Source: an uncultured Candidatus Saccharibacteria bacterium (GTDB taxonomy: Bacteria; Patescibacteriota; Minisyncoccia; Phycocordibacterales; PALSA-1337). Taken from it: a DNA stretch of 64,000 nt. Position numbers and translations under genes: made by a program. Of the stretch, positions 3,892-30,213 are shown in pieces; positions within the stretch are counted from its first letter, which is position 1; the number at the start of each line of letters is the position of its first letter. The stretch is from assembly GCA_964412585.1 (NCBI GenBank), contig CAYPPJ010000002.1, positions 77,720 through 141,719 of the forward strand. Direction: 5' to 3'. Below the pieces are notes generated by a model that saw nothing but the letters and a program-made list of their open reading frames with translations, was not told the DNA's origin and made no database searches.

Positions 3892-4659
3892 TTAGAGTGT
3901 TCCTTCCCACAATATCTCAAATACTGATCGGAAGATGTCTACCATGGCTGGTATTGCTACAACGACCGCCAGCGCCTTCACCTCTGGACCGATAATAACA
4001 ATCTTGTCGTCATAAATATCAATAGTGCTCTTGAAATTATATTTTTCAGGCAAATATTTGAATGAACGCAAGAGTTTCGGATCATTCTGACCTTCTTCGG
4101 CGCGTGAATCGTGCGAGAGAAGTAATTTGACCCTGGTGTTTCGAGTTGCGCGCTTTTTGCGGAATGAAACGAGAAAGTCGCGGTCAATATTCAAGAATCC
4201 GGAGACACTGCCGATGATGTAGTACTCGCGATCGCGATATTCATCGAGGATGTTGTTGTAAAACGCTTCAAGCTCGCGTTTTGACTTGATCATGCGTACG
4301 CCATACTCTTTGAGCTCTTGTCCCTGCATGCGTTCGAGTACGGGAATGATCCTGGTGAGTGAGTTGAGCTTGTTCTCATACAGGGAAGTCAGCTTGCTTG
4401 GCCGAATAGGGGTAAAAAACTTCTTGCTACCTTGATCGGAAGCTATGACAACGCCATGCGAGATGAGGCGCTCAAGCAAGGGGTAGGCAGTGGTGCGTTT
4501 GAGGCCCATAGCAGAGGCCAATTGGGTGGCAGAAGCACCACCGAGCTCGATGAGCTTCACATACACAGAAACCTCTTGTTCTGAGAGGCCAAATTCACCC
4601 AAAACGCCTTTAATTTCATCATTATTCATTGTTGTTAAAAAATTACGACAATAATGCAA
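3892..4659 (-). CDS. TrmB-family HTH transcriptional regulator (paralog 1 of 6)
   Basis: N-terminus ...GLSEQEVSVYVKLIELGGASATQLASAMGLKRTTAYPLLERLISHGVV is a TrmB-type winged helix-turn-helix, and the C-terminal domain is shared with the other five paralogs. Start may instead be the Met at 4629. It is divergent from the binding-protein gene at 4754. Confidence 0.6.
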   Translation of the reverse strand: MHYCRNFLTTMNNDEIKGVLGEFGLSEQEVSVYVKLIELGGASATQLASAMGLKRTTAYPLLERLISHGVVIASDQGSKKFFTPIRPSKLTSLYENKLNSLTRIIPVLERMQGQELKEYGVRMIKSKRELEAFYNNILDEYRDREYYIIGSVSGFLNIDRDFLVSFRKKRATRNTRVKLLLSHDSRAEEGQNDPKLLRSFKYLPEKYNFKSTIDIYDDKIVIIGPEVKALAVVVAIPAMVDIFRSVFEILWEGTL

Positions 4660-4717
4660 ATTAAGTATAATATATTCGTAAATAAAGTCAAATTGAACAT
4701 TAATTTGTTAATAAATA

Positions 4718-4746
4718 TTGACAAATGAGGTGGAATGGTATATACT
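4718..4746 (+). promoter_or_regulatory. near-consensus sigma70-type promoter (TTGACA-N17-TATACT) for the binding-protein gene at 4754
   Basis: Read directly: TTGACA at 4718-4723 and TATACT at 4741-4746, ending 7 nt before the ATG. A divergent TTGACT-N16-TATACT (-10 at 4674-4679) on the minus strand serves the regulator. Confidence 0.6.
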
Positions 4747-4753
4747 ATAGGGT

Positions 4754-5875
4754 ATGAAAACAAAAATCATTTCAATTATTGTTGTTTTGGCTATTATTGT
4801 CGTATTAGTGGCGACTTTGGGAGGTAAAACAGCACAATCTATAAAAATAGGTGCTTTGTACCCGCTTACTGGGGGATTGGCTTCATATGGTGAGCCGGCA
4901 TTCAACGCGGCCAAGCTTGCCGTTGAGGATATCAATGCGTCGGGTGGTATTAACGGCGCGCAGCTCGAACTAGTCGCGGAAGATCACGCGTGTGATCCAA
5001 AAGTTGCGGTGTCTGCGTACAACAAATTGGTTAAGACAGAAAATATTCACATCCTCACATCAGTTGCGTGTACGGGAACGGTTCTGGCGTTGGTGCCAAA
5101 TCTTGAGAAAGATAACGTCGTGCTTCTTGGAACAGTGACCAGCGGAAATAAATTAACAAATGTTTCACCAAACTTTTTTCGTAACTGGGCATCAGATCGA
5201 CAAGAGTCAAAGTTGCTCGCTGAACGAATCATCAAAAATAAATACCAAAGTGTAGCGACATTGAACGAAGAAACAGATTATGCGAAAGGCTTGGTCGTGT
5301 CGCTCGGCGAATTTCTCAAAGACTCGGCGGTAAAGATATCGAGCGAATCATTCGCTTCTGGTTCTGCCGATGTGCGTACTCAGCTTGCAAAGTTACAGGC
5401 GCTCAAAACTGACGTCGTGTTCATCAGTGTGCAGACAGTGACGACAGGTGAGATGGTGTTGAAGCAGATCGGACAGCTCAATTTCAAGCCGAAGGTATTA
5501 TTTGTGAATGATAATATTTTGAAAGCGACTTCTCTAGTCAAAGATCATGCGCAATTGCTCGAAGGCGCAATTGGAGGAGACTATGTGTTTGAAGTTGGAG
5601 GCAAAGCCGGTGAATTTCTTGCAAAGTATCGCATGGCATACGGCGCAGATTGCCCGCAGATAAATATCTGTTTGGCCGAATATGACGCTATTCAAATGCT
5701 CGCGGAAGGGCTTAAAACAAAGGGGGATTCATTCTTGCAGGTGAGGCGGTATTTGACGGGCAGTGAATACACTGGGTTAAGTGGAAGGATTTCCTTCGAT
5801 GCCAACCATGATCGCGAGGGCGCGGAGTATTCGTTGTTTGAGATTAGGGGAGGAAAGGTGGAGGTGGTGAAATAA
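4754..5875 (+). CDS. type-1 periplasmic binding protein (LivJ / Leu-Ile-Val-binding-like, Peripla_BP_6 family), membrane-anchored, with no transporter partner
   Basis: N-terminal anchor MKTKIISIIVVLAIIVVLVATLGG, then IKIGALYPLTGGLASYGEPAFNAAKLAVEDINASGGINGAQLELVAEDHACDPKVAVSAYNKLV, the canonical N-terminus of Leu/Ile/Val-binding-type proteins. Confidence 0.7.
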   Translation: MKTKIISIIVVLAIIVVLVATLGGKTAQSIKIGALYPLTGGLASYGEPAFNAAKLAVEDINASGGINGAQLELVAEDHACDPKVAVSAYNKLVKTENIHILTSVACTGTVLALVPNLEKDNVVLLGTVTSGNKLTNVSPNFFRNWASDRQESKLLAERIIKNKYQSVATLNEETDYAKGLVVSLGEFLKDSAVKISSESFASGSADVRTQLAKLQALKTDVVFISVQTVTTGEMVLKQIGQLNFKPKVLFVNDNILKATSLVKDHAQLLEGAIGGDYVFEVGGKAGEFLAKYRMAYGADCPQINICLAEYDAIQMLAEGLKTKGDSFLQVRRYLTGSEYTGLSGRISFDANHDREGAEYSLFEIRGGKVEVVK

Positions 5876-5914
5876 GCAATATGCAAAAAGTGCATAATGC
5901 TTTTACATTAAAAA

Positions 5915-5942
5915 CCCCGTCCGGAAAATCCGAACGGGGTTT
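5915..5942. terminator. bidirectional rho-independent terminator between the convergent genes 4754..5875 and 5956..6699
   Basis: Hairpin CCCCGTCCGG-aaaat-CCGAACGGGG flanked by an A-run on its 5' side and a T-run on its 3' side. Confidence 0.6.
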
Positions 5943-5955
5943 GCGACTCTGGAAG

Positions 5956-6699
5956 TCAGTTGAACTTGTACGAGACGCCGCTCCAGACCATGGCGTCCGT
6001 GCTCCGCTTGTTGCTCATCATCGGCACGTACCAATTCATCCCGAAAACATTTACCGTGAGATGTTTGTTGGCATGCCAGTCGAGGCCGAGGTTGCCGCGC
6101 CAGAAGAATCCGCGTCCCGATCCGATGGTGCCGGTATCATACACTAGCAGTGCTGAAGCGTGCGTACCGACTTTCTCCTGGCAGAAGTTCTTCGAGGTAC
6201 TGACACCCAGACTGAAGAGGTGTCCTCCTTCAAAGCCGCTTCCAGGCAATGGCGTGAAGTTCTCGTATCCAGCTGTGACCGCGAAGTTTGTAAAGCTTCT
6301 GGTCAGGTATATAACTGGATGGAGAATATCACCTCGCCCGAGAGACAGTGCCTTCGGCTCGTCAAAGTAGGTGATGCCCACTTTGAGTGAGAGGTTCTCT
6401 GCGATTTGACCCTTCCAGCCGATGGCGTAGTCAACTTCGTTGCCGAAGCTGCCGTCATCCCATGAGCCTTTGAGACTGCGAGAGACCGCGAGGTCAGCGT
6501 AGATACCATTCGCAAAAGACACGAAGATATCCGACTGAATCACGGGGTCAGACGAGAGCGGATTGCCCGTCTCGAAGCCGAGGTACTGATTGGCGACGTA
6601 CGACGATAACGTGATCGTCGGCCAACTTTTCTCTTCGGCGCGGACAGAGGTGATGGAGACTGCGGACGCGATAAGGGCAAGGAACAATGTGCTTTTCAT
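5956..6699 (-). CDS. secreted beta-rich protein of unknown function on a GC-rich island
   Basis: Signal peptide MKSTLFLALIASAVSITSVRA-EE, followed by alternating hydrophobic/Gly/aromatic beta-strand-like patterning; GC content is clearly above the window average. Confidence 0.4.
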   Translation of the reverse strand: MKSTLFLALIASAVSITSVRAEEKSWPTITLSSYVANQYLGFETGNPLSSDPVIQSDIFVSFANGIYADLAVSRSLKGSWDDGSFGNEVDYAIGWKGQIAENLSLKVGITYFDEPKALSLGRGDILHPVIYLTRSFTNFAVTAGYENFTPLPGSGFEGGHLFSLGVSTSKNFCQEKVGTHASALLVYDTGTIGSGRGFFWRGNLGLDWHANKHLTVNVFGMNWYVPMMSNKRSTDAMVWSGVSYKFN

Positions 6700-6821
6700 A
6701 ATGTGAGGGTCTTTCTTGGTTTGTGATTGTGAATGTTCTGCGTTGTTACTCTATGAGCCCTCGACACCATGTCGTCGGCTCAATGAAGTGGAGGAAGGGT
6801 GGGCTTCCTCCGTGGGGAAGT

Positions 6822-7169
6822 TTAGGAAACCCATCCGGACCGGAAAGCTTTTTCCTTGGGTGGCTTTACACCTTTTCGTAATACGACGAGATGGCCAGTA
6901 GTACTCCCGTCTTTCAAGTGTTTCTTGATGAACTTTGAGATTGGGTTAGGGAGTGGGCCGACTGGATTTCGGTAGGTGTACATCTTGAATTCGTGACGTG
7001 TGCCATCGCTCGATCCGGGACGGCGGCGAGGGTTTCCACCGAGAACAATCCTCGAGGACTCTTCCTCAATTCGATACCATTGTCCGTTGATTTGCACGAC
7101 CCAAGAATGGTCATTGTCATAAGGTTGCGGGACTCCGTTGGGTATTTCAACTCCAGTTGGTGTTTTCAT
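6822..7169 (-). CDS. hypothetical protein on the GC-rich island
   Basis: 115-aa ORF with no recognisable motif, on the same strand and with the same composition as 5956..6699. Confidence 0.3.
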   Translation of the reverse strand: MKTPTGVEIPNGVPQPYDNDHSWVVQINGQWYRIEEESSRIVLGGNPRRRPGSSDGTRHEFKMYTYRNPVGPLPNPISKFIKKHLKDGSTTGHLVVLRKGVKPPKEKAFRSGWVS

Positions 7170-7390
7170 AGTATTGAGTTCGGTTAGGGGATTCAGTTCG
7201 CAGACGATAGTGTCAGCGTGTCACTGTCTCCCCAGTCCCGAACTCAATCTACTGTATTCAAGGTACTTTCCTTTACTTACTTGTATAATTATTGCATAAT
7301 TTGTCCGAATTGTCAATTAAAAAATCACAAATAAAGCCTTGTTTTCCAATATATATTGATAAATAAGGCTAAAAATGTGTCAACAAAGTA

Positions 7391-7418
7391 TTGACAACAT
7401 AGGGGTATCTGCTACACT
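7391..7418 (+). promoter_or_regulatory. sigma70-type promoter TTGACA-N16-TACACT for regulator 7425
   Basis: TTGACA at 7391-7396 and TACACT at 7413-7418, 6 nt before the ATG. Confidence 0.5.
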
Positions 7419-7424
7419 TTAGGC

Positions 7425-8192
7425 ATGATTGATGAAACGTTAAAGAAATTGGGTTTTAGCGACAAGGAGATACTGGTGTATCTGACTATTCTTGAGAATG
7501 GCAAGGTTTTACCAGCTACCATATCCTCTATTACGCACATAAAACGCCCTACGGTATATGCGATAGGCAAAGAATTGGTCAAAAAAGGCATTATTACGCA
7601 GGACGTAGAAGGAGCAGGAGGTTATTTTGTCGCTTTACCGCCACAGCACCTCAATACAATCGTAGAAAAAGAGGAAAGGGATATTATTGCAAAGAAAAAG
7701 ATTATTAAAGAGGCAATTAGTGAACTCGAGAATGTGCCAAAATCCAAATCATACTCAGTTCCGAAGATGCGCTTTATTGATGAGTACAACATAAAAGATT
7801 TTCTTTACAGACAGACGCCTATGTGGGAGGAGAGTATGATTCGTAGTGGAGATCTGACATGGTGGGGATTTCAAGATCATACAATTCTTGAAACTAAGGA
7901 GTATGTTGACTGGATAGATTGGTATTGGAAAATAGGTTCAGAGAAGATTGATCTCAAACTCATTTCAAACGATTCGGCAATTGAGGCTAAGATGGCTGAG
8001 AAGAAATATCCAAGGCGCGCCATCAAATTTTGGAAAAATGAATTTAAATTTACTGCAACCAACTTTATTATGGGGGACTACGTCGTATTTTTCATGACTG
8101 GCCAGCGCCCGCACTATCTAGTTGAGATCCACGATGCTGTGTATGCGCAAAATATGAGACAAGTTTTTAGAAACTTGTGGGAGATTATTTAG
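7425..8192 (+). CDS. TrmB-family HTH transcriptional regulator (paralog 2)
   Basis: N-terminus MIDETLKKLGFSDKEILVYLTILENGKVLPATISSITHIKRPTVYAIGKELVKKGIITQ. The C-terminal domain ends ...VFRNLWEII, as in the other paralogs. Confidence 0.6.
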   Translation: MIDETLKKLGFSDKEILVYLTILENGKVLPATISSITHIKRPTVYAIGKELVKKGIITQDVEGAGGYFVALPPQHLNTIVEKEERDIIAKKKIIKEAISELENVPKSKSYSVPKMRFIDEYNIKDFLYRQTPMWEESMIRSGDLTWWGFQDHTILETKEYVDWIDWYWKIGSEKIDLKLISNDSAIEAKMAEKKYPRRAIKFWKNEFKFTATNFIMGDYVVFFMTGQRPHYLVEIHDAVYAQNMRQVFRNLWEII

Positions 8193-9003
8193 TTTCACTA
8201 TCGAGCCCTTCCAAAAATGCATCAGTATACTGCGGCTCTGCTTTGACTGGCTTAGATAGATCCCATATAGCTTCAAATTGGGTTTTCATGAGATTGGCAA
8301 AGTCTCTGCTGTGAATAATGAAGCCGAATGATTCCTTCTGGGAAGAAATAAAGGCGACCTTGTCTTCGTACATCCAATAGCCCATATCCCAAGCCATATC
8401 CTTTGGTGCAAGACGGATTTCGCGTAGATGTCCGCCACCAACGCCCAGAAAAGGATATTTTTTAAAATCTTGTTTGGATCCGTGTGGATATATCCCGCGA
8501 ATAGAAATGTTTCTTTTAATTCGTTTTTTGTTGAGCTCCTCGAGATAGTCGGCACCAAGGACGTTCAGGACCTCACTCATGGGCCACATAATGGTGGTGT
8601 TAATATTTCGGTGCCACATAATATGATTCATCACTTGTTGCAAACCTTCTTTGCCAGAATAAAACTTGATCTTTGGCTCGGTGAAGCTCGTCTGCTTGAG
8701 TAGGGTAGGTAATAGTTTCTTGAAAGATGCCTTTTCAGTTTCGAGTGAGTCAATTTTTGATTGGAGAAGGTTGGGAATATTATGTACATCATCTACTGAG
8801 AATATTTTTTTATTTTCTTCATCTCGTTCACTGACGAGTCCGTGTTGGATCAGTATTTTAATGTTGTCATACACTGATGGTCGGGGAATACCGAGCCTTT
8901 CTGCAACAAGTCGAGCGGTTGAAGGCCCTTTTTCGAGAAGACTGGTAAAAATCTTTTGGGCCTGAAGAGGCAGATTGAGTTCGTGGAGGATTTTATCAAG
9001 CAT
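8185..9003 (-). CDS. TrmB-family HTH transcriptional regulator (paralog 3); 3' end overlaps paralog 2 by 8 nt
   Basis: N-terminus MLDKILHELNLPLQAQKIFTSLLEKGPSTARLVAERLGIPRPSVYDNIKILIQHGLVSER; C-terminus ...FEAIWDL. Confidence 0.6.
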   Translation of the reverse strand: MLDKILHELNLPLQAQKIFTSLLEKGPSTARLVAERLGIPRPSVYDNIKILIQHGLVSERDEENKKIFSVDDVHNIPNLLQSKIDSLETEKASFKKLLPTLLKQTSFTEPKIKFYSGKEGLQQVMNHIMWHRNINTTIMWPMSEVLNVLGADYLEELNKKRIKRNISIRGIYPHGSKQDFKKYPFLGVGGGHLREIRLAPKDMAWDMGYWMYEDKVAFISSQKESFGFIIHSRDFANLMKTQFEAIWDLSKPVKAEPQYTDAFLEGLDSETK

Positions 9004-9012
9004 AGTATATAT

Positions 9013-9041
9013 TTGTCGATTTTCGCCGACAGATTTACAAT
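9013..9041 (+). promoter_or_regulatory. promoter TTGTCG-N17-TACAAT with an inverted repeat TGTCG-N8-CGACA (9014-9031) inside the spacer; candidate operator between regulator 8185..9003 and the binding-protein gene at 9070
   Basis: Read directly from ATTTGTCGATTTTCGCCGACAGATTTACAAT. Confidence 0.5.
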
Positions 9042-9069
9042 ACCACAGCTTCGGGTTATGCTCAAGCCC

Positions 9070-10155
9070 ATGAAAACAAAAAAGATCATAGCCTTGTGCA
9101 TTGGCCTTATTGTCATTGTGGCCCTTATTATTACCGGTAGGACCAATGGGGGAGAGACGGCTAAAACCATCAGGATTGGCGCTATTTTACCGCTTTCTGG
9201 CACGCAAGCGTTTACCGGTGAAGGCATGAGAGATGCCCTTGAACTTGCGTGGAAGAATGTAAAAGGTACAAAATATTCGTATGAGCTCATTGTGGAAGAT
9301 GGCGCTTTCGACGCAAAAGCCTCTATCAGTGCCGCAAACAAACTGATTAGTATAGACAAGGTCGATGCAATCATTGATGCGTACGCACCCATAGGCAATG
9401 TTGTTGCGCCGATTACTGAAAAAGCCCGTATAGTGCATATTGGTGTCGGGTTTGATCCCAAGGCAGCCGAAGGTGATTACAATTTTATCCTATTTACCAC
9501 TCCGGAAACCGCCGCGAAATCCTTCTTGGCCGAAATGCAGAGACGTAATCTTCACACGCTCGGTATTTTCAGAGTGAATAACTCTGGAATATTCGCCGTG
9601 TATAGCGCAATTAAACTCAATGCACATGAGTACGGTATCACTATTATCTCTGATGAAATGTTTCAGCCGGGCGAACGAGATTTTAAAAGTCTTATCGTAA
9701 AGGGATCGACACCCAAGGCAGATTTGTACGCGTTGCTTGCACTGTCGCCCGAGCTTGAGATCTTGGCAAAACAGCTCTATGAACAAAATATCCATAATCT
9801 GTCCTCGACTATTTACTTTGAATTGGCGAAAGATAAGTCTGTGTTTGAAGGTTTGTGGTCTATCGGGTACGGGAAAGTGGCCTCTGACTTTGAGGCACAG
9901 TATAAATCAACGTATAACCGCGAACTTGGATTTGGGTCTGCTAATGTGTATGACGCGTTCAATGTGATTATGCGTGCAGCTGAGACGTCGGCCGGTACAA
10001 ACAAACCGTCGCCACAGGTTATTGCTTCTCAAATTCAAGGCGTTGGTAATTTCTCTGAAGTACTAGGTGAGCTCCGCGTGAATGATATCGGTATTATTGA
10101 TACACCGACGATGGTGAAGATGGTTAAGGAGGGGAAGATGAAGGTGGTAGAGTAG
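9070..10155 (+). CDS. type-1 periplasmic binding protein (LivJ-like), membrane-anchored, with no transporter partner
   Basis: Start placed at the internal Met (MKTKKIIALCIGLIVIVALIITG); the ORF-track start at 8956 would overlap the divergent regulator. TIRIGAILPLSGTQAFTGEGMRDALELAWKNV is PBP type-1-like. Confidence 0.65.
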   Translation: MKTKKIIALCIGLIVIVALIITGRTNGGETAKTIRIGAILPLSGTQAFTGEGMRDALELAWKNVKGTKYSYELIVEDGAFDAKASISAANKLISIDKVDAIIDAYAPIGNVVAPITEKARIVHIGVGFDPKAAEGDYNFILFTTPETAAKSFLAEMQRRNLHTLGIFRVNNSGIFAVYSAIKLNAHEYGITIISDEMFQPGERDFKSLIVKGSTPKADLYALLALSPELEILAKQLYEQNIHNLSSTIYFELAKDKSVFEGLWSIGYGKVASDFEAQYKSTYNRELGFGSANVYDAFNVIMRAAETSAGTNKPSPQVIASQIQGVGNFSEVLGELRVNDIGIIDTPTMVKMVKEGKMKVVE

Positions 10156-10181: not shown

Positions 10182-11261
10182 TTACAACTGTATCTCAACA
10201 GGTTTACCCGCAGTTATCTTATAGAATTTCTGATCGAGGGTGGCCATCCTGTCGACATATCTCATACCACTAAGGGCGCTGTTGGGATTTTTTTCGGTGT
10301 TGCCAAAATACTTGATTACACAGGCGCTATCCTTATTGCACTTTTCCTCTGCGAGGAAGAGGTTTCTAATGTTTTCATAGCCGAAAGCGGCAGCTTCCAT
10401 AAGACCAGCGTCAGCTGATCCGAATTTGTCAGTATATTTCTTGGCAAAAGCAGGTGATATTGGAGAATCGAAGTATATGCTACCTTCGAGAGCAGGTGCG
10501 TAGTTTGCCAGTATCTTATCTGTCATACAATCTGCTTTATGACAGAAAAGCGGAATGTTAATACCCATGTCCGATGCTTGCTTGATGAGAGTATTGGCGT
10601 CTGCTTCGACGACAATGGCAATGATAGAATCGGCACCAAATTGCTTGGCCTTAAGAAGCAGTGTCTTGAAGTCATTACCTGCGATATTGTCGAAAATCAG
10701 TAAGTCGCCATCGCTGTACGATTTCTTGAGTGATGCAATGCACGTCGGTGCAACATCGCCAATCTTTGCGAAGATTGCGATCTTTCGAACTCCATTCTTG
10801 GGTGCGTATTCAACATAACTGTCGCACGCGGTCTTGATGTTCACGAACGATTTTACTGAGAGAGGATTTGTCTCCAAGATTTTTGGTGTCATGGCGCTAT
10901 AGAGCAGCACTTTTCCTGCTGACTGCACAATTGGAGAGGCTGCAAGTCCTAAACTCGAGAATTCCGTATATACCGCGTCAACTTTATCTATAGATACGAG
11001 CTTACTTGCGGCACTGGCCGCTGATTTTGGCGCACTTTGATCGTCTTCGATAATGACGTTGATTGCAGAGTTGCCGTATTCTTTCTGTATATCTTCGACG
11101 GCGAGCTTGATGCCGTTGCTGACCGGCTCAGCCCAGTAAGCTCCCCAGCCGGTGACGGGGAGGACTGCGCCGATACTTACAGATGCCTTTGTACCGCCTC
11201 GTGTTAGGAAGATAAGTATAATAACGATAACTACAGCAATAATACTAAGTGTTTTTTTCAT
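10182..11261 (-). CDS. type-1 periplasmic binding protein (LivJ-like), membrane-anchored, with no transporter partner
   Basis: MKKTLSIIAVVIVIILIFLT anchor, then SIGAVLPVTGWGAYWAEPVSNGIKLAVEDIQKEYG. It is convergent with the gene at 9070 and divergent from regulator 11425. Confidence 0.65.
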   Translation of the reverse strand: MKKTLSIIAVVIVIILIFLTRGGTKASVSIGAVLPVTGWGAYWAEPVSNGIKLAVEDIQKEYGNSAINVIIEDDQSAPKSAASAASKLVSIDKVDAVYTEFSSLGLAASPIVQSAGKVLLYSAMTPKILETNPLSVKSFVNIKTACDSYVEYAPKNGVRKIAIFAKIGDVAPTCIASLKKSYSDGDLLIFDNIAGNDFKTLLLKAKQFGADSIIAIVVEADANTLIKQASDMGINIPLFCHKADCMTDKILANYAPALEGSIYFDSPISPAFAKKYTDKFGSADAGLMEAAAFGYENIRNLFLAEEKCNKDSACVIKYFGNTEKNPNSALSGMRYVDRMATLDQKFYKITAGKPVEIQL

Positions 11262-11388: not shown

Positions 11389-11418
11389 TTGTCACACAAT
11401 CCGACAGTGTGATATTAT
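11389..11418 (+). promoter_or_regulatory. promoter TTGTCA-N18-TATTAT with inverted repeat TCACAC-N9-GTGTGA (11392-11412) in the spacer; candidate operator for regulator 11425
   Basis: Read directly from TTGTCACACAATCCGACAGTGTGATATTAT, 6 nt before the ATG at 11425. Confidence 0.5.
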
Positions 11419-11424
11419 GCCTCT

Positions 11425-12168
11425 ATGCAAGAGACACTCATTTCATATGGTTTTACCGAGAGACAGGCTGCCATCTATCTGTATTTGCTTGAACAGCACG
11501 ATAGGCCGGCATACGTGATTGCTACAGAAACACGAATACCACGTGCGACTGTATATAAGATTCTAGATGAGCTCAAGAAACAAGGGCTGATCAGCTCGTG
11601 GATCAAGAATGGCGTCAGACATTTCTCTGCTGAAAGCCCTGAATTTTTGCGTAGGGCACTTATTAAAAAACAGGAGCTTATTGATAAGGCGCTTCCAGAC
11701 ATGCTTTCGTTGTTCAAGTCTGATGTGATTTATCCAGCCGCCAAGCTCTATGAAGGCAAAGAGGGAGTAAAGCAGGTGTTTGAAAACATGCTTGATATCA
11801 TTCGAACTCGTAAACTCAAACGGATATATGCGTATAGCGACAATAGTCTAACCGAACAGTTTCCCGTATTTTTCCGTGAATGGCGTACGCGTAAGAACAA
11901 AAGTAGTGGAGGCGCATTTACACACCTCATTGTTCCATATGGTACGCAACTTAACAAAGATTATTTTAGTGATGAATTTCGCGAGACTCGAGTCATGACC
12001 CGTTCGTTTCCGATTGATGGTACGATAGATATTTGTGGATCGTATGTGGCCTTCTTTTCATTTAAAAAAGGGAATATATTCGCCGTAACAATAGATTCCG
12101 AGATAATTTCTGATTTGCTGACCAAATTCTTCCAATATATCTGGGAAACGCTCGAGCCGGGCCGTTAA
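11425..12168 (+). CDS. TrmB-family HTH transcriptional regulator (paralog 4)
   Basis: MQETLISYGFTERQAAIYLYLLEQHDRPAYVIATETRIPRATVYKILDELKKQGLISSW; C-terminus ...FFQYIWETLEP. Confidence 0.6.
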   Translation: MQETLISYGFTERQAAIYLYLLEQHDRPAYVIATETRIPRATVYKILDELKKQGLISSWIKNGVRHFSAESPEFLRRALIKKQELIDKALPDMLSLFKSDVIYPAAKLYEGKEGVKQVFENMLDIIRTRKLKRIYAYSDNSLTEQFPVFFREWRTRKNKSSGGAFTHLIVPYGTQLNKDYFSDEFRETRVMTRSFPIDGTIDICGSYVAFFSFKKGNIFAVTIDSEIISDLLTKFFQYIWETLEPGR

Positions 12169-20646: not shown

Positions 20647-21474
20647 TTACTTTTGATTCGTCCGAACCTGCTTTATCAGTCTATTATGATCAATCTTTCT
20701 ATTACTTACTTTCACAAACTCGAACATATCGCGTAGGAAGAGCATGATTTCTTTGTTGGTAATCTCAATAGCAACCTCTTCACGCCAGTTCACGATGAGC
20801 GCCGTATCTTTAAAAAGCCATATCTCGGCGTCATGATCAAAGAATTGGTCGGGAAAAGTGGTGTAGTCTGCCATACGACCTTCTAGACTCTCGACAGCCG
20901 CTGCATTTTTCTTGAAATCACTTTTTATTTCTTCTCTATATTGCGCATAAGCACTTTCATTCAGGATTCCATCGATAATAAGCCGGTTTTTGATAACTGT
21001 TTTATTAAATTCAACCAATTGCGCCTGCGAAATCTTTTCCAACATGGCATTCCAGGAGCGGTGGTGTTGAATGGCTTTAATGCGCTGGTTCTTATTTTCC
21101 TTAACAACACGCAAATATGCGGGGATGACTTCCTCTTTGCCTACATGAATAATAAATTCGTTTTCTTTCGAGGTACGGATACGGACGCCGCGCTTTTCTT
21201 TGGCTGACATGCGGATGTCGCCAATCACCCGTTCAAATTTTTGCGCGAGCCTATCTCCACTTACGGCAATATAGTTTCTACGCCTCTTGATCTGAATAGG
21301 GGATACCAGACCTTTCTTGGTCAATTTTTCCAAACAGTAAGTAACTCCCGTACGCGATACTCCACTGTCGCGGGTAATGTCGCGTACATTTTTCTCCGTT
21401 GAAAGTACGTTGAGCACGCTGGTTTCTACGGAATTCAGCCCGAGTATTTTCATTGAGTCTTGAGACCAATTCAT
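20647..21474 (-). CDS. TrmB-family HTH transcriptional regulator (paralog 5)
   Basis: ...LNVLSTEKNVRDITRDSGVSRTGVTYCLEKLTKKGLVSP helix-turn-helix; divergent from the binding-protein gene at 21616. Confidence 0.55.
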   Translation of the reverse strand: MNWSQDSMKILGLNSVETSVLNVLSTEKNVRDITRDSGVSRTGVTYCLEKLTKKGLVSPIQIKRRRNYIAVSGDRLAQKFERVIGDIRMSAKEKRGVRIRTSKENEFIIHVGKEEVIPAYLRVVKENKNQRIKAIQHHRSWNAMLEKISQAQLVEFNKTVIKNRLIIDGILNESAYAQYREEIKSDFKKNAAAVESLEGRMADYTTFPDQFFDHDAEIWLFKDTALIVNWREEVAIEITNKEIMLFLRDMFEFVKVSNRKIDHNRLIKQVRTNQK

Positions 21475-21615
21475 GCCATTATCATAGTAAATAACTAATT
21501 TTTAGTCAAATCAATAATACAAAAAATGCCTTAAAATAAGGGTATTATACTAATTTTGCATCCAAAATCGATATTTATATACAACAGATTATTAAACATG
21601 TAAAATATATGCATT

Positions 21616-22722
21616 ATGAATAAATATATAAAAATAGGTATTGGTATCGTGGTTATAGTAGTTGTGATTATTATTGGTGTTACGAATGAAAGTTCACAAA
21701 AAAAGTCAGGTTCGCTCAAGATAGGGGTGATTTCTTCGCTGACTGGTGATTATGGCGCAATCGGAGAAAATACAGTAAAGGGTATTAAAGTCGCGCAGCG
21801 TGTATATGAGAAAAAGACGGGCACAAAAGTGGAGCTTGTTATCGAAGATGATGGAGGTGATGGTGTAAAAGGTCTTTCTGCCTTTAGCAAGCTTACGCAG
21901 GTCAACCATGTCGATGGCATGATTAATTTCTTTACTACGACGATGGACTCGATCTACGCACCAGCAAAGACTCAAGGGTATCCAGTGATGATGGTGGCAT
22001 TTCAGGCGAATAACGTAGCTGACGACTTCGTCTTTCAGATGACGCCAAGTAATGATGATGTCTGGCCAAAGTTTGTAAAGCTTGTGAAGAATGGTGACTA
22101 TGACTTGAGTAATGTCGCACTCGTGTATTCCAAGGCGGCAGCACAAGAATCATTTGTCAAATCATTTGCCTTGAATTATGCAGGCAAAGCTACTCAGTTC
22201 GGTATTTCTTCAGGACAGAATGATTTCCGTTCTGATGCTGCGAAGATTGCCGCATTCAAACCAACGACGGTTGTCTTCTTCATGACGCCGGATGATGGGG
22301 CGCTTCTCACCAAGACGTTGGTACCAATGTTAAGCAAGTCGACAAAGCTTATCTACGACATTCAGTTAGTGACGGGTACCGCGAATTATAAAAAGATTCT
22401 CGGAGGTTTCTCATCTATCGAGGGTGCCATGACCTTGAGTCCAGAAGGTGAGCGTAGTCAGGATTTCATTGACGCATATCATGAGCTTTATCCAAATGAA
22501 GAACCAGGATTTCTTGCGGATTTCGGTTACGACACATTCATGGTCTACATGGAGTCGTATGACGAAGATAATGCAACTTGGATCTCGAACCTTCGCTCGT
22601 ACACCGGAAAAGGCCCGAGCGGACAGATAAAGTTCAACGATAAGGGTATTCGAGCCCCTGATATGGTGGTTAAGAAGGTGGTTGGCGGGGAATTGCAGAC
22701 GACGGCGAGATTGGAGTTCTAA
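21616..22722 (+). CDS. type-1 periplasmic binding protein (LivJ-like), membrane-anchored, with no transporter partner
   Basis: MNKYIKIGIGIVVIVVVIIIGV anchor, then SLKIGVISSLTGDYGAIGENTVKGIKVAQRVYEKKTGTKVELVIEDDGGD. Confidence 0.65.
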   Translation: MNKYIKIGIGIVVIVVVIIIGVTNESSQKKSGSLKIGVISSLTGDYGAIGENTVKGIKVAQRVYEKKTGTKVELVIEDDGGDGVKGLSAFSKLTQVNHVDGMINFFTTTMDSIYAPAKTQGYPVMMVAFQANNVADDFVFQMTPSNDDVWPKFVKLVKNGDYDLSNVALVYSKAAAQESFVKSFALNYAGKATQFGISSGQNDFRSDAAKIAAFKPTTVVFFMTPDDGALLTKTLVPMLSKSTKLIYDIQLVTGTANYKKILGGFSSIEGAMTLSPEGERSQDFIDAYHELYPNEEPGFLADFGYDTFMVYMESYDEDNATWISNLRSYTGKGPSGQIKFNDKGIRAPDMVVKKVVGGELQTTARLEF

Positions 22723-22949: not shown

Positions 22950-24569
22950 ATGAAGACACGATCCATACGGAAACTTGTTACCCTGATGTCGCTCACTTTG
23001 GTGAGTGCGGCGGCATGGGGTGGAATATCAGTCAACCAGAATACGACTATCGGTGAGGCCGTCCCGGCATCGCCGAAGACGTTCAGTCTGATGAGTCTCA
23101 AGTCGGGTGGGGGAGGTGGCATGAAACCATCCAACCTTATCCTGATTACGAATGCCGCCACGCTGAGTGGTCGCCAAGAAAGCGCGCTCGTCTATGATCG
23201 CTACGGCAATGCCTACGGGGCGACTCGCTCGGGCGGTAATTACGGCTTGGGGTTGGTGTACAAGATTGACCCCAGTAATGTCGTAACGACCTTGCGGTCA
23301 CTGCCATCTACGAACACGTCGGGCGAGGGTTATTGGGCTTTCGGCGGCGTGATCTTAATCAACGATGACACCCTCATGGGAACGACCATCGCTGGCAGCT
23401 CGAATAATCTCGGCTGCATGTACACCATCAAGACCTCCGGGTCGGGTTACAAGGAGGTCATGGCCTACAACGGCACCAATGGTGCCAGTCCAAATGACCG
23501 CCTGCTATTTGACGGTCACCAGACTGTCTATAGCACCACCATCCAAGGTGGCGAAGCGGGTGACTATGGAACTGTTGCATCGCACTCAACCAACGGTGTC
23601 GCGAATTGGATCTACAAGCTCCATGGCACCAATGGCAGCCATCCCTATGGTGGACTGATATTCAATGCCGACCGTTCGCGTCTCGTCGGTACTACGGCGA
23701 TTGGTGGAGCAAACGGTTATGGCGTCGTATTCGATATTAGCACCAACGGCACTGATTATCGTGTGCTTTACAACTTGGTCGGTGGTAATGGCGGACAAGG
23801 TCCTGAAAACGCACTGGTCTTGGGCATTGACGGACGGTATTACGGAAGTACATCCGGTACCAATAGCTACATGTTGGGCGGACTCTTCACCATCAGTGCT
23901 GACGGAAGTGGATTTAGTCTCTTCTACAAGTATTCGACTGCCATGGGCGCCCTGTGGGCATTCCCGCAAGAACCCTTGCGCACGAGAAATGGTGATTTCC
24001 TAGTCCCTTCGTACCACGGAGGGATCTACCATACCGGTAATGTGGTGCGGTTTACCACATCACTCGACGTGAATACCGTTGTTGACTTCGATGGGACCAA
24101 TGGCGGTTCAACAACTACGTTGGTGCTCAATCTGTTCAAAGGGACCTATGATGGCGTTCGTCGCCAGCTTGGTTCGCCCGCGATTTACCGCAAGGTCGAG
24201 CTTTCCATTCCAGAAATGACGCAGGTCAGGCAGATTGAGAATTCGCCGAGCAATAACATCATTGCATTTGACTCGGCGGCAGGGCAGACCTATACGCCCC
24301 TGTCTGGTCCAATGCCTGGCATTTCGCTTACCAACCTTGCAACGGTTACTGCAACATCCGCAGTTACCTCCATCACAAATGTTGGGCCACTAGTTGGCGA
24401 TGCGGGCTTCAGGATAATAACCGACTTCACCAACACGCCTGCAGGCTTTAATACGGCCATGGCCAAGGGTGTCTATCTGCCACCGCTTCGACTGGTTAGT
24501 TATTTTCCACCAGTGCCACATTGCACCAATTGCCCGGCGGACACAAATCCGCCACCTGGATTCCCGTGA
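22950..24569 (+). CDS. secreted repeat protein with GloVer-like tandem repeats (choice-of-anchor type) on a GC-rich island
   Basis: Signal peptide MKTRSIRKLVTLMSLTLVSAAAWG. Repeats follow the pattern GxxPxxGLIxxxxxxLYGTTxxGGxxGxGxVFxIxxxGxxYxVL, for example GGANGYGVVFDISTNGTDYRVLYNL and LGGLFTISADGSGFSLFYKYS. Confidence 0.5.
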   Translation: MKTRSIRKLVTLMSLTLVSAAAWGGISVNQNTTIGEAVPASPKTFSLMSLKSGGGGGMKPSNLILITNAATLSGRQESALVYDRYGNAYGATRSGGNYGLGLVYKIDPSNVVTTLRSLPSTNTSGEGYWAFGGVILINDDTLMGTTIAGSSNNLGCMYTIKTSGSGYKEVMAYNGTNGASPNDRLLFDGHQTVYSTTIQGGEAGDYGTVASHSTNGVANWIYKLHGTNGSHPYGGLIFNADRSRLVGTTAIGGANGYGVVFDISTNGTDYRVLYNLVGGNGGQGPENALVLGIDGRYYGSTSGTNSYMLGGLFTISADGSGFSLFYKYSTAMGALWAFPQEPLRTRNGDFLVPSYHGGIYHTGNVVRFTTSLDVNTVVDFDGTNGGSTTTLVLNLFKGTYDGVRRQLGSPAIYRKVELSIPEMTQVRQIENSPSNNIIAFDSAAGQTYTPLSGPMPGISLTNLATVTATSAVTSITNVGPLVGDAGFRIITDFTNTPAGFNTAMAKGVYLPPLRLVSYFPPVPHCTNCPADTNPPPGFP

Positions 24570-26012: not shown

Positions 26013-26034
26013 TAATATATAATGTGTAAACAAT

Positions 26035-26400
26035 ATGAAAAAAACTAATAAAAATAAATACTCTCTAGTTCGTGTTGTGTGGCGCGACTCAAATATGTAT
26101 CGATTTCAGGATTCGATTGAGTATGCGCTTGGCAATTACTCTGTTGAGGCAATAGTGACGGTCGGTTTTCTTCTTGGCTACAACAAGAAAGACCCGATTG
26201 TGACGCGTGAGATTATGAACAAGGGACTCGATCAGAGATGCTCGATTGTTATCCCAAAAGAAAATATTCTTAGTTTTACTAAAATAAAAGGCGACTACAG
26301 TGACCATTGGGAGTGGGCTGAAAAGCGAATGCCAGAGAATCCTGACAAATCATCGCCGAAAAATAAGGCCGCACTCAGCAAAAAAGAAAAACCCGAGTAG
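26035..26400 (+). CDS. hypothetical protein
   Basis: 121-aa ORF with no recognised motif; followed by a terminator. Confidence 0.4.
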   Translation: MKKTNKNKYSLVRVVWRDSNMYRFQDSIEYALGNYSVEAIVTVGFLLGYNKKDPIVTREIMNKGLDQRCSIVIPKENILSFTKIKGDYSDHWEWAEKRMPENPDKSSPKNKAALSKKEKPE

Positions 26401-26419
26401 ACCGGGTTTTTCTTTTTTT
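26390..26419. terminator. bidirectional terminator between 26035..26400 and nusA
   Basis: AACCCG-agtagac-CGGGTT followed by TTTCTTTTTTT. Confidence 0.6.
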
Positions 26420-26431
26420 CTGCGTATAGAT

Positions 26432-27621
26432 TTATTCTGCTTTCTTTTCCTCTGAAGCAGGAGCTTCAGTAGCCTCATCTTCATCACCATCAGCTTCGGC
26501 GAGATCTTCGCCACCTGTTGATTTGATATCAATTTTCCAACCAGTAAGCTTTGCAGCAAGACGAACGTTTTGTCCGCCCTTGCCGATAGCGAGAGACTGT
26601 TCGTCCTCGGTAACAGTGACGATGGCACGATGAGCTTTTTCATCAAGTTCGAGAGAGACGACCTCGGCAGGCGAGAGTGCCTCTTCAATAAAGAGAGCAG
26701 GGTCCTCATTCCATTCAACAATGTCAATTTTTTCTCCTGACAATTCGCTGGTAACGGTAGATACACGAACTCCACGCTGACCAACCATGGAACCGATCGG
26801 GTCAATGTGTGCGTCGTGGGAAACAACGGCAACTTTTGAACGTGAACCAGCCTCACGAGCGATAGCTTTGATCTCAACAGTTCCCGAAGCGATCTCCGGA
26901 GCCTCTGTCTCAAAGAGTTTTGCGAGGAATTTTGGATGTGCGCGTGACAGTTTCAAGACAATACCTTTTGGTGACTCTTCGACGGCGTAGAGATAGGCGC
27001 GAATACGATCGCCAGTTTTCCAGCGCTCGCTTGGAATCTGCTCTTCATAAGGAATGATACCGAGTGCGCGACCCATGTTGATGTGGACCATGCCACGTTC
27101 GACACGCTCGACGGTACCTGCGACAATCTCGCCTTCTTTGGCACCGTATTCACCCATAACTGAAACCTTCTCAGCTTCACGGATCTTTTGGATGATGATT
27201 TGCTTTGCGGTCTGCGCAGCAATGCGACCGAAATCCGCCTTGGTTTCGAGAGGGAAGACAAGCTCGTCACCAATCTCGGCGTTTTTCTTGATCTTCTTTG
27301 CATCTTCGATGAGCATGTGTTGCTCAGGGTTGAAGCGGATCTTGATGTCATCGACGTTGGCGTCTTTGAGGTCAATCTCTTCCTCCTCGTCACCTTCCAT
27401 GATGACTTGGTTGCGGTCAACGACGACTTTCACCTGCCAAAATTCGACGGCACCAGAGTTCTCATCGAATGATGCGCGGACGATCTGGCCTTTCTTGCCA
27501 TACTCTTTCTTGTAGGCAGTCGCGAGAGACATGGCGATAGCTTCCAAGGTCTTTTCCTTTGGAATACCGCGCTCTTCTTCGAGCTGCTGAACGACTGAAT
27601 TGATTACTTTGAGGTCAAACA
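26432..27621 (-). CDS. nusA: transcription termination/antitermination factor NusA
   Basis: Start placed at MFDLKVINSVVQQLEEERGIPKEKTLEAIAMSLATAYKK (NusA N-terminal domain); followed by S1 and KH regions (GEIVAGTVERVERGMVHINMG..., LAIGKGGQNVRLAAKLTGWKIDIKS) and an acidic tail. Confidence 0.85.
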
Positions 27622-27785
27622 TATATGTAGTTGTTATTCTGTTGTTATTAAATTGTATTTCTTCTAACAAATAAGTCCGCCGGTGGGCGAACTGATGACG
27701 AGAGTAAATATAGCATATGTAGGGGTATTTTGCAATACACGAGTTGACTATCTCTTTCAAGTAAGGTTAAATCCTACTAGAAACT

Positions 27786-28163
27786 ATGAAACCACACCCA
27801 GAACCCTTGATTTTGGTCGCGATGACTGCATTTTTGTTGATTGTCACAGCTCACTTTAAAAGGCAGTGCACTGCTTCTCCGCAAGTTGATCCGCTTACCA
27901 AGAAGATCAGGCTTGTCAGTTTTCTGTTGTCGGTCATGATCGCATTGGTGGGAATAACGATTGCTGGATTGCCTTACTTCGACGTTAGTGCTCGGTCGTT
28001 GGCTGCGACGATTGCCGTCATGATTCTTATCGCAAGCGCCTTGTTCGGCATCCAAGCGACTTTACATTCGTATCGTTCGCTCAGGTCCGCGGTACTGCCA
28101 AGCATTTTTTGTGTTTACGGAATTGTTTTGGCGTGGATGGCCTTACGACATCTGCCAGAGTGA
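27786..28163 (+). CDS. hypothetical integral membrane protein (four predicted TM helices)
   Basis: Judged from hydrophobicity pattern only. Confidence 0.4.
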   Translation: MKPHPEPLILVAMTAFLLIVTAHFKRQCTASPQVDPLTKKIRLVSFLLSVMIALVGITIAGLPYFDVSARSLAATIAVMILIASALFGIQATLHSYRSLRSAVLPSIFCVYGIVLAWMALRHLPE

Positions 28164-28190
28164 TATGGTGCGGCAGGAATGACGCAGGCA

Positions 28191-28219
28191 GGGCCCCCTA
28201 TAGGAGTGGGGCCTTTTTT
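28191..28219 (+). terminator. terminator; also overlaps the last codons of the regulator on the minus strand
   Basis: GGCCCC-ctataggagt-GGGGCC followed by T6. Confidence 0.55.
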
Positions 28220-28968
28220 ATTTGTGTTGTTTCAAGGAGTTTCCACATTGACAGGAATAGATTACGCAGCATGTTTGCGATAGCAGGCGACTCAATGATG
28301 ATTGCGTACTCTTCTTTCTCTTTAAAGGAAAAAAAGGCTAGTTTGTTGGCGTATATATCTATCGTGCCATGGATGGGCGAGCCAGAGGGAAGTAAACGAG
28401 TCTCTCGGTAGGAATTTGTCACCAGATCAGGGTCTGATGTCCTATCTCCTGCGCTTGAAGTGATGAGATATGAAAAAATTTTGAGCTGTTCACGGCGTTT
28501 GAGCCACTGAGGAAAGAATTTTGGAAGCATACTCAACATATCGAGGTTAGAAAATGCATGTAGTTCACGAATATTTTCACGATCAAGGGTTTCGAGGATG
28601 TCATCGAAGACGAATTTTACGCCACTTGATCCCATGTAAAGTTTTGCGGCAGGCATAAGCCTGTCGTGGCCACGGAGGCTCATAAGTTCCGGAATTGCAG
28701 AACGAATAAGGGCTTCTTTTTCCTGTTGGATTTTCAATAATCGATTTGGACTCTCGGCAGAGTAGTAAATGACATTGTTTTTCTTCCAAGAAGAGACGTA
28801 ACCTTGTGCTGTAAGGGAATCGAGAGTGTGATATGCGGTTGTACGTGCAATGCCTGTCTCTTTTGCCAGCATGAAAGCCGTCGCTTCGGCGTGTCGTAAC
28901 AATGAAGTGTAGATGGTCGCCTCATTTTCACTGAAACCACATTTTTTGAGGGTATTTTGTATTGACAT
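28198..28968 (-). CDS. TrmB-family HTH transcriptional regulator (paralog 6)
   Basis: MSIQNTLKKCGFSENEATIYTSLLRHAEATAFMLAKETGIARTTAYHTLDSLTAQGYVSSW; C-terminus ...FLSMWKLLE. Confidence 0.6.
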   Translation of the reverse strand: MSIQNTLKKCGFSENEATIYTSLLRHAEATAFMLAKETGIARTTAYHTLDSLTAQGYVSSWKKNNVIYYSAESPNRLLKIQQEKEALIRSAIPELMSLRGHDRLMPAAKLYMGSSGVKFVFDDILETLDRENIRELHAFSNLDMLSMLPKFFPQWLKRREQLKIFSYLITSSAGDRTSDPDLVTNSYRETRLLPSGSPIHGTIDIYANKLAFFSFKEKEEYAIIIESPAIANMLRNLFLSMWKLLETTQIKKAPLL

Positions 28969-28975
28969 GAATACT

Positions 28976-28990
28976 GTCCAAAATTTGGAC
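28976..28990. promoter_or_regulatory. inverted repeat GTCCAAA-a-TTTGGAC, 8 nt upstream of the regulator 28198..28968 start; candidate autoregulatory operator
   Basis: Read directly. Confidence 0.4.
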
Positions 28991-29100
28991 TACTTTTTAT
29001 GCATAAAATATGGCCTTACTATAGTTTATTTTAATCATAAGTGCAAATATGTGTAAAATTAAAGGACTATATTGACATAATTTGTAATAATGTTCTTGTT

Positions 29101-30213
29101 ATGAAAAAAATATCCATTATTACCTGTGTGGCTATCATTATTATTGGTGTGTTGATCTGGAAAGGCCCCAATCAGGAAACGGTCATAAAAATTGGTGTCG
29201 TGGGACCATTTACCGGTAGCGCGGCTAGTTTTGGCGATCTGATGCAACGTGGGTTGGATTTGGGACTGGCATCGCTCACCGATGAACAGAAGTCGCGCAT
29301 TCAGATTATAAAAGAAGATGATGCGTGTAGTGGTAAGAATGCTGTCAGCGCGGTCAAAAAACTCATAGAGGTTGATAAGGTCAATTATATTATTGGCCCG
29401 CTATGTAACGAATCGACATTAGCGACAGAAACTTTATTTGAAGATAACAAGGTTATCTCAGTAAGCATTGGATTGCCCTCAAATAAGATTGCCGAGATGG
29501 GCCCGTACCATTTCTCGTTTTCTCCAGAGATTGAATATCTTATGAAGACGCTTTCGCAGAAAGTTATTGACGAAAATATGCACCGCGTAGCAGTAATCCA
29601 CATAACTTCTGCAATGGAAGAGGAGAACTACTCCAATTTTGTTAAGCACTTCAGGGAATTGGGCGGGGTTATTGTTGCTGACGAGGCGGCACCGAAGGGT
29701 GCAAGTGATTTTCGAGATCTTGTCCTGAAAGTAAAGCAGTCCAAGCCGGACGCGATCGTAATCATGGCGTATCGTGAAGGGGAATTGAACACATTACTTA
29801 AGCAATTATCTGATGCTGGCCTGGGAAATCTGCCGAAATTTGGCATCCATGCGGTTCAAACTCCTGCGGTTCTCAACGTGAAGGATCTTGCCGAGGGACT
29901 TATCTATCCGTATCCTGCCGACAAAACGGCGAATGAGTCGGCTGCTGCCTATGCACGCATGTATCGCGAGAAATATGATGCGGATCCAGATATTTCTTCC
30001 TCGAATACCTATGACTCACTGCGAATATTTGTCACTTCAATCGAGAAATGTGGCTATTCAAATAAAGAATGTGTACGTGATTCAATTGCACAGCTTAAGA
30101 ATTATCAAGGTGCCAACGGAAGCTTGTCACTTGATGAGAGAGGAGTGGGCACGTATAAGGAGATTATGTTGAAGGTGGTTCACGATGGAAAGTTTGAGAA
30201 ACTGCCCGAATAG
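29101..30213 (+). CDS. type-1 periplasmic binding protein (LivJ-like), membrane-anchored, with no transporter partner
   Basis: Start placed at the internal Met (MKKISIITCVAIIIIGVLIW); then VIKIGVVGPFTGSAASFGDLMQRGLDLGLAS. Confidence 0.65.
   Translation: MKKISIITCVAIIIIGVLIWKGPNQETVIKIGVVGPFTGSAASFGDLMQRGLDLGLASLTDEQKSRIQIIKEDDACSGKNAVSAVKKLIEVDKVNYIIGPLCNESTLATETLFEDNKVISVSIGLPSNKIAEMGPYHFSFSPEIEYLMKTLSQKVIDENMHRVAVIHITSAMEEENYSNFVKHFRELGGVIVADEAAPKGASDFRDLVLKVKQSKPDAIVIMAYREGELNTLLKQLSDAGLGNLPKFGIHAVQTPAVLNVKDLAEGLIYPYPADKTANESAAAYARMYREKYDADPDISSSNTYDSLRIFVTSIEKCGYSNKECVRDSIAQLKNYQGANGSLSLDERGVGTYKEIMLKVVHDGKFEKLPE

Follow-up and report, generated by a model that had tools for sequence, protein, structure and literature searches.

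The closest described systems to the locus analysed here are two kinds of solute-uptake cluster. In Thermococcus litoralis and Pyrococcus furiosus, the regulator TrmB (PDB 3qph) belongs to the gene cluster of a trehalose/maltose ATP-binding cassette (ABC) transporter, and in the HAAT systems of Escherichia coli (LivJ/LivK-LivHMGF) and Rhizobium (Bra) several binding proteins serve one translocator. The window, a 64-kb stretch of contig CAYPPJ010000002.1, encodes six TrmB-like regulators (R1 to R6) and five membrane-anchored Liv-type binding proteins (B1 to B5), arranged in five divergent pairs. We consider it highly probable that these units are the regulated binding subunits of an ordinary Liv/HAAT ABC importer, in which several diverged solute-binding proteins (SBPs) share one translocator under local TrmB-like regulators, because related Patescibacteria carry the same units among LivH/M, LivG and LivF genes. 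An earlier note on this DNA, made from the sequence alone, had held that the binding proteins were unlikely to be ordinary transporter subunits; the modules lying among LivH/M/G/F genes in relatives, together with an operon that holds orthologs of R5 and B4, contradict that view. The arrangement is real, conserved and lineage-specific, and it varies two known themes in a new way, the local control of an ABC importer by a TrmB-type regulator and the use of one translocator by several binding proteins; it is not a new signalling principle. Our literature searches returned no paper on the pairing of a TrmB regulator with an SBP, and nothing relevant for TrmB in the candidate phyla radiation (CPR)/Patescibacteria or for bacterial TrmB with SBPs, so the earlier note's impression that the pairing had not been described stands.

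As in the archaeal TrmB cluster, the gene for an ABC-importer binding protein has next to it the gene of a TrmB-family regulator made up of a winged helix, a long helix and a PLD-like domain. The TrmB cluster has a palindromic operator at its promoter, to which the palindromes of the window, as predicted operators, are comparable, and the logic of a local regulator of an uptake system is common to both. The system of the window differs from the TrmB cluster in being bacterial (CPR), in having regulators without the C-terminal sugar-binding barrel and in using type-I HAAT (LivJ-like) binding proteins where the TrmB cluster has a MalE-like one; its unit is multiplied five to seven times per locus and splits the liv operon, and its predicted operator has the form TGTC-N9-11-GACA. 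R6 shares with TrmBL2 (5box, 5bpd) the domain architecture, the lack of a sugar-binding subdomain and a similar length, but TrmBL2 is an archaeal chromatin-like paralog that coats DNA non-specifically as a global repressor, whereas each paralog of the window lies by a specific conserved palindrome and one target gene. With E. coli LivJ/LivK-LivHMGF the system has in common type-I binding proteins and, in relatives of the window, two permeases and two ATPases; on our reading it also has more than one binding protein per translocator. Unlike E. coli Liv, it has membrane-anchored binding proteins in five to seven or more very divergent paralogs (pairwise identity 21-31% among the five of the window) whose canonical ligand residues are mostly replaced, and it provides a dedicated TrmB-like regulator for each in place of control by Lrp.

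The genes themselves are as the earlier note had described them in most respects. All six regulators exceed the gathering score of the TrmB helix-turn-helix family PF01978 in Pfam (30.9-51.7 bits against a cut-off of 25.6, E 2e-7 to 8e-14); they are paralogs of about 250 aa that can be aligned end to end at pairwise identities of 20-38%, and they all fall within 25 kb. All five binding proteins match Peripla_BP_6 (PF13458; 95-177 bits against a cut-off of 31.7, E 8e-27 to 1e-51), and each has one N-terminal hydrophobic segment without a lipobox, which agrees with the proposed signal-anchor. R1 (3892-4629, minus strand; TrmB E 9.7e-14) is divergent from B1 (4754-5875, plus strand; Peripla_BP_6 E 1e-51, PDB matches 4gnr and 1z15), the most LivJ-like of the five. 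R3 (8185-9003, minus strand; E 2.4e-11) is paired in the same way with B2 (9058-10155, plus strand; E 3.8e-29), and R4 (11425-12168, plus strand; a Pfam TrmB match with 38% identity to R6) with B3 (10182-11261, minus strand; E 5.7e-33). R5 (20647-21474, minus strand; E 2.4e-7), which has 268 aa in the JGI call against 275 aa in the open reading frame (ORF), faces B4 (21616-22722, plus strand; E 8.5e-27), and R6 (28198-28968, minus strand; E 8e-14) faces B5 (29101-30213, plus strand; E 9e-46), which ends 15 nt upstream of pilB. R2 (7425-8192, plus strand; E 2.9e-12) is the sole regulator without a binding-protein partner. Two gene starts deserve comment. For R1, the earlier note had followed the longest ORF to a TTG at 4659, but the start is most likely the ATG at 4629, giving 245 aa, as the JGI call and the family alignment favour; for B2, 9058 and the previously given 9070 are both possible.

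Predicted structures place both partners in known folds. The AlphaFold2 model of R6 (pLDDT 87) consists of a winged helix, a long helix and an alpha/beta domain, and its best PDB matches by Foldseek are TrmBL2 (5box/5bpd, E 5e-14) and TrmB (3qph, E 2e-10), as expected from the earlier assignment to the TrmB type; its C-terminal domain alone matches the PLD-like Zucchini/PLD6. The model of B5 (pLDDT 93) has a helix at residues 2-19, the anchor, followed by a type-I periplasmic-binding-protein (PBP) fold that is LivK/LivJ-like, with TM-scores of 0.86/0.91 to Thermotoga maritima LivK (3td9) and 0.83/0.88 to pneumococcal LivJ (4gnr). PDB sequence searches with the binding proteins agree with the fold in leading to structures of branched-chain amino acid SBPs. 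The regulator family is large: its profile matched 24,223 cluster representatives, of which 4,323 reached E <= 1e-30. Many of the top profile matches, all outside the window, are long proteins of 370-1079 aa (for example P0254, P0255, P0258, P0262 and P0268), which carry a complete N-terminal regulator (helix-turn-helix, helix, C-terminal domain) and one to six extra tandem PLD-like domains of about 135 aa, so that their lengths fit about 250+135n. We know of no described TrmB-family protein with tandem PLD-like C-terminal copies. A regulator homolog split over two ORFs is also found at L039 10004-10771, in a metagenome-assembled genome labelled Nanoarchaeota (DPANN); this could stem from exchange between CPR and DPANN or from wrong binning.

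The evidence that carries our reading comes from the relatives. Loci given an L number are stretches fetched from related genomes and metagenomes and annotated with local hidden Markov models (HMMs). A metagenome scan with an alignment of CPR LivG returned 80 loci that form a graded series. The majority are plain operons of a binding protein, two permeases, LivG and LivF (B>P>P>G>F>); in the middle of the series a regulator diverges from such an operon (R<B>P>P>G>F> in L056, L063 and L118, R<B>P>G>F> in L087), and at its end stand the expanded arrays of L100, L109 and L121. Across the relatives, arrays reach up to seven units. Close homologs of genes of the window take part in these operons: in L087 the ortholog of R5 (50% identity) is divergent from the ortholog of B4 (57%), with which a permease-LivG-LivF operon begins, in L115 a B1-like protein (55%) stands at the head of a complete livJHMGF operon, and in L069, L070, L093 and others B2-like proteins (40-43%) head canonical livJHMGF operons. 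The units are also found between the transporter genes. The order in L041 is permease, R<B>, R<B>, permease, LivG, R<B>, LivF; in L042 a B1 ortholog (62%) is divergent from a regulator, and it is this regulator that LivG-LivF follow; in L043 six pairs are interleaved with a PF02653 permease, LivG and LivF; and in L030 a LivG-type ATPase starts 20 nt after a binding-protein paralog. ABC genes adjacent to the modules, which the earlier note had said would show these to be conventional Liv transporters, are thus present in related genomes, though none was found in the roughly 82 kb of this one. At L030 4076-4879, an opposite-strand gene of 267 aa occupies the expected place of LivF after LivG, which suggests an insertion that split the liv operon. 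A protein of 266-279 aa with a faint or weak Response_reg match recurs inside clusters of regulators, SBPs and Liv genes (L041 7789-8628, L042 7100-7900) and has no counterpart in the window.

These loci bear directly on the alternative favoured in the earlier note, that the anchored binding proteins are transporter-free extracytoplasmic sensors signalling to the paired TrmB-like regulators. ABC genes are indeed absent from the 64 kb and its flanks, and the tight one-to-one pairing is conserved across genomes. AmiC/AmiR and receptor-type PBPs are described systems in which a type-I PBP fold is linked to gene regulation. However, AmiC is cytoplasmic and binds its regulator directly, whereas the PBPs of the window lie outside the membrane and consist of a short N-terminal anchor and the PBP domain only, without a cytoplasmic or fused signalling domain, and the regulators have no membrane segment. 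No route from the extracytoplasmic ligand to the cytoplasmic regulator is evident. The relatives have the same modules among LivHMGF genes, with the R5/B4 ortholog pair heading a liv operon. The signal-anchor does not set these proteins apart from transporter subunits either: because 29 of the 30 binding proteins encoded directly upstream of a permease gene carry the same N-terminal anchor, it is the normal tether in these wall-less-periplasm bacteria and not a sensor mark. We therefore regard the sensor explanation as very improbable.

The regulator/SBP unit is itself conserved, which bears out the earlier note's view of a duplicated and diversified module family. Searching the species genomes of GTDB with the R6 subfamily yielded 26 CPR loci. 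R6 and B5 orthologs (53-75% identity) lie on shared contigs in at least 10 genomes, and in the two of these that we inspected the R6/B5 pair is intact while every neighbour is different. An R1 ortholog with 70% identity occurs in L017, and R5 orthologs with 47-50% identity in L042, L117 and L087. Local HMM searches found arrays of divergent pairs in Taylorbacteria/Paceibacteria-like loci, with up to seven regulators and six binding proteins within 12 kb in L035; in Uhrbacteria, Kerfeldbacteria and Magasanikbacteria the regulator family is present without binding-protein partners. Over all fetched loci, a PBP gene diverges from 66 of 100 regulators, and the gap between the two has a median of 122 nt. 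The modules are inherited as units between genomes.

The shared intergenic regions point to a common type of operator. A palindromic operator is predicted beside each regulator, with variants conserved in orthologs, in keeping with the earlier proposal of paralog-specific operators. The common pattern is TGTC-N9-11-GACA, in which the inner bases and the spacing differ between paralogs. It occurs three times without mismatch in the 64 kb, which is the number expected by chance, yet each occurrence immediately precedes a regulator gene, namely R2, R3 or R4. Among the regulators of all loci, counted from -100 to +60 of the regulator start, 29 of 101 have the pattern nearby (about 1.2 expected); regions shared by a regulator and an SBP hold the exact motif in 18 of 71 cases (0.85 expected) and a version with at most one mismatch in 43 of 71 (12.7 expected), and the median distance of the motif centre in these regions is 23 nt to the start of the regulator and 134 nt to that of the binding protein. 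A fixed spacing is insufficient and the variable N9-11 is needed, since TGTC-N9-GACA matches only R4 in the window and N8 matches nothing. One exact operator for the whole family was ruled out as well, as R1, R5 and R6 carry one-mismatch or different variants.

Individually, the elements are as follows. R2 has the putative operator TGTCAA-N7-TTGACA (7378-7396), overlapping the -35 element of its promoter-like site (7391-7418). The R3/B2 region, only 54-66 nt long, contains TGTCG-N8-CGACA (9014-9031), which overlaps a promoter-like site for B2 and has related palindromes in L109 and L103. For R4, TGTC-N9-GACA (11390-11406) lies inside the promoter-like site of the regulator (11389-11418) and is kept in the orthologous regions of L035-L037; it overlaps the palindrome that the earlier note had placed at 11392-11412, which exists, as do the other two that it named (9014-9031 and 28976-28990). 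The R6 element, GTCCAAAATTTGGAC(TAC) at 28976-28993, is a candidate operator by its ortholog conservation, the half TGGACTAC being conserved in seven orthologous regions. The R1/B1 and R5/B4 regions had been said to show no clear palindrome, but both carry palindromes conserved in orthologs. Next to R1, an imperfect palindrome of the TGTT-N10-GACA type (TTGTTG...CGACAA, 4630-4651) was read inside sequence that had previously been counted as coding, and the orthologous regions of L017 and L042 hold a similar element at the corresponding position. Next to R5, the block AAATAACTAATTTTTAGTCAA (21489-21509), with the palindrome TAACTAA-N3-TTAGTCA, overlaps the -35 element of the R5 promoter-like site (21509-21481), and these 21 nt are identical in the ortholog L117 despite diverged flanks.

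Because the putative operators overlap promoter-like sites of the regulator genes, the sequence supports autoregulation of the regulators through predicted paralog-specific operators. The statement that each shared region has its own promoter held in part: on the binding-protein side, promoter-like sites with at least 9 of 12 matches are present in four of the five regions, and none scored for B5. The R1/B1 region has one in each direction, TTGACT-16-TATACT towards R1 (4691-4664) and TTGACA-17-TATACT towards B1 (4718-4746). The architecture resembles that of LysR-type systems, with divergent genes and an operator over the regulator's promoter, 60-130 nt upstream of the target gene; the protein families are unrelated, and activation is a feature of LysR. 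In the stretches 4718-4756 (B1) and 11389-11427 (R4), the -10 element of the promoter-like site ends 7-8 nt before the start codon, and the mRNAs of these two genes may be leaderless or nearly so.

Based on these findings, we propose the following scheme. The ancestor, in the Paceibacteria or a Taylorbacteria-like CPR lineage, would have had a single locus in which a regulator diverged from livJ-H-M-G-F. The regulator and SBP unit would then have multiplied, each unit placing a local TrmB-family transcription factor divergent from the gene of a membrane-tethered Liv/HAAT-type SBP, and SBPs with different pockets would deliver to one shared LivHMGF translocator. A regulator dimer may bind the TGTC-N9-11-GACA operator and repress its own gene; the same site, or a weaker second site, could control the SBP promoter 60-130 nt away, by repression or by LysR-like activation. 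The effector would be the imported solute or a derivative of it, with the C-terminal PLD-like domain as its binding site. This genome would encode its translocator outside the roughly 82 kb that we examined.

Several findings weigh against this importer scheme, and the first group concerns the translocator. Pfam annotation of the gene context and tblastn with CPR LivH/M/G/F seeds detected no ABC permease or ATPase in the window, as the earlier note had stated, or in its 10-kb flanks; the sole weak tblastn match in the window is the Walker A motif of PilB. No LivH/M/G/F remnants were found by tblastn in the window and flanks (about 82 kb), where the genome's translocator was not located. None of the 80 LivG loci comes from the samples of the window (Ga04900xx), and in the closest relatives sampled (L015-L019, L035-L037) the arrays are likewise without ABC genes within 20 kb. 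Because LivHMGF was not located in the roughly 82 kb seen, there is a small chance that the binding proteins of this genome are orphaned. One version of this idea is that the Liv translocator has been lost from this genome and the SBPs persist for capture or retention of solutes at the surface, or dock to a different uptake system. The lack of ABC genes in about 82 kb and within 20 kb of the closest relatives' arrays is in its favour, as is L030, where the inserted gene in place of LivF after LivG suggests operon erosion. Set against this, all five SBP genes are intact, divergent, individually regulated and conserved in orthologs, which speaks for selection on a working pathway, Patescibacteria very commonly have LivG-type ATPases (that of L030 has 7790 homolog matches, many at 60-90% identity), and only about one tenth of a genome was examined; we judge such a loss to be quite unlikely. 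It is also unlikely, in our estimation, that the Liv translocator genes are absent in this lineage, as they are from the arrays seen in its closest relatives, and that the anchored SBPs have been repurposed. If this were so, they might be, for instance, receptors on the cell surface, capturing metabolites of the host for a different route of uptake or serving the attachment of cells to each other.

A second group of adverse points concerns the regulators, their pairing and their sites. PF01978 and Peripla_BP_6 were found in every protein expected to carry them, but the third profile that the earlier note had named, the sugar-binding domain Regulator_TrmB (PF11495), has no match in the six regulators at E <= 0.01. 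The regulators score 18-32 bits with the NCBIfam TrmB and TrmBL1 equivalogs, far under the cut-offs of 500-650, and with about 250 aa against the 338 of TrmB they fall short of it by about 90 aa. Because of the fold match, the missing PF11495 and the missed NCBIfam cut-offs, we class them, by sequence and predicted structure, as members of the TrmB family with a TrmBL2-type architecture and not as TrmB orthologs. Since the sugar-binding subdomain is absent, ligand sensing by these regulators is an assumption. The distance matrices of regulators and SBPs are correlated (Mantel r = 0.69, reached by none of 2000 permutations), as expected from the co-diversification that the earlier note had suggested testing; within genomes, however, the nearest paralogs of regulators and SBPs agree in 18 of 47 cases against 16.6 expected, which is chance, and the B1 ortholog in L042 is paired with a different regulator. 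For these two reasons strict co-duplication of regulator and SBP is not demonstrated and we do not claim it. The putative operators, finally, are proximal to the regulator, so that their control of the SBP promoter is hypothetical.

The remaining adverse point is the identity of the ligands. The LivJ residues that hold the amino acid (Y18, S79, T102, Y202, E226) are partly kept in B1 and mostly replaced in B2-B5, and ligands other than amino acids may be bound for this reason. B1 appears to keep five of seven ligand positions (Y18, T79, S102, Y150, D226), an uncertain count at the 21-31% identity of the alignment, and B5 orthologs conserve a different set (CNES / GLPSN / GIH), likewise read from a low-identity alignment. 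The ligands of the binding proteins have thus probably diversified. A more distant identity, that of LpoA/LppC-like activators of peptidoglycan synthases, is hinted at by a weak match of B5 to PF04348 (LppC, E 8e-4) and by two NCBI records in which orthologs are labelled 'penicillin-binding protein activator'. We rejected it and give it almost no credence: only B5 matches PF04348, at 18.5 bits against a gathering cut-off of 28.8; the closest proteins, by sequence and by fold, are without exception ABC SBPs, with no LpoA among the top 50 fold matches; and such an activator would not fit five to seven paralogs per genome located in liv operons.

With an importer as the preferred reading, the units gain a wider meaning. 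CPR/Patescibacteria have tiny genomes with few regulators and few transporters and are thought to depend on hosts. The evidence does support the arrays of TrmB-like regulators and SBPs as the main inducible gene network of these reduced genomes. With five of the six regulators dedicated to Liv-type SBPs whose pockets have diverged, the window suggests that scavenging several solutes selectively through one importer, each under its own control, is a major regulated activity of this lineage. The conserved operator and the one-to-one pairing offer testable triplets of regulator, target and ligand in organisms that cannot be cultured. By our assignments, two automatic labels, 'sugar-specific regulator TrmB' and 'penicillin-binding protein activator', are in need of correction.

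The neighbours of B5 raise one further possibility. Downstream of it lie pilB (30229-32013, T2SSE E 3e-120), pilC (32037-33257) and three genes with prepilin-like N-termini (33261-37178). B5 could be imagined as part of the type IV pilus or DNA-uptake machinery and R6 as a pilus regulator, given that only 15 nt separate B5 from pilB, with pilC and pilin-like genes following, and that the liv cluster of L041 comes after pilM. This identity is hardly credible, and we rejected it: in two relatives the B5 orthologs precede an HU gene or an isochorismatase gene instead of pilB, and the fold of B5 is typically LivK-like. R6 may nevertheless also control the type IV pilus operon in this genome.

The other genes of the window include those for trigger factor, ClpP, RNase Y, HU, H+-PPase, ComEC, PilB/PilC and pilin-like proteins, TIM and PGK, and their named homologs are in records of Candidatus Taylorbacteria, Paceibacterota and Patescibacteria. 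Judged by these gene neighbours and named homologs, the window is from a Taylorbacteria-like member of the Parcubacteria group of the CPR.

Upstream of the unpaired R2, in divergent orientation, lie a gene of 115 aa (6822-7169) and one of 247 aa that has a secretion signal (5956-6699), and a strong promoter-like site, TTGACA-17-AATAAT (7316-7288), is oriented towards them; these two genes may be a non-SBP target of R2. Pfam gave nothing usable at E <= 0.1 for them or for the gene at 22950-24569. In one sample (L047 15296-16890, JGI Ga0490004_00069), synteny with the window is lost inside R2, at about 7425: 79 aa of R2 are followed by RMMBL, SecE and NusG genes, which reflects either a strain rearrangement or a chimeric assembly. 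Far from the units, at 62233-63821, the products of two adjacent genes, of 327 and 191 aa, are nearly identical over about 70 N-terminal residues that begin with a signal peptide, and one of them has a weak H_lectin match; they look like duplicated secreted proteins.

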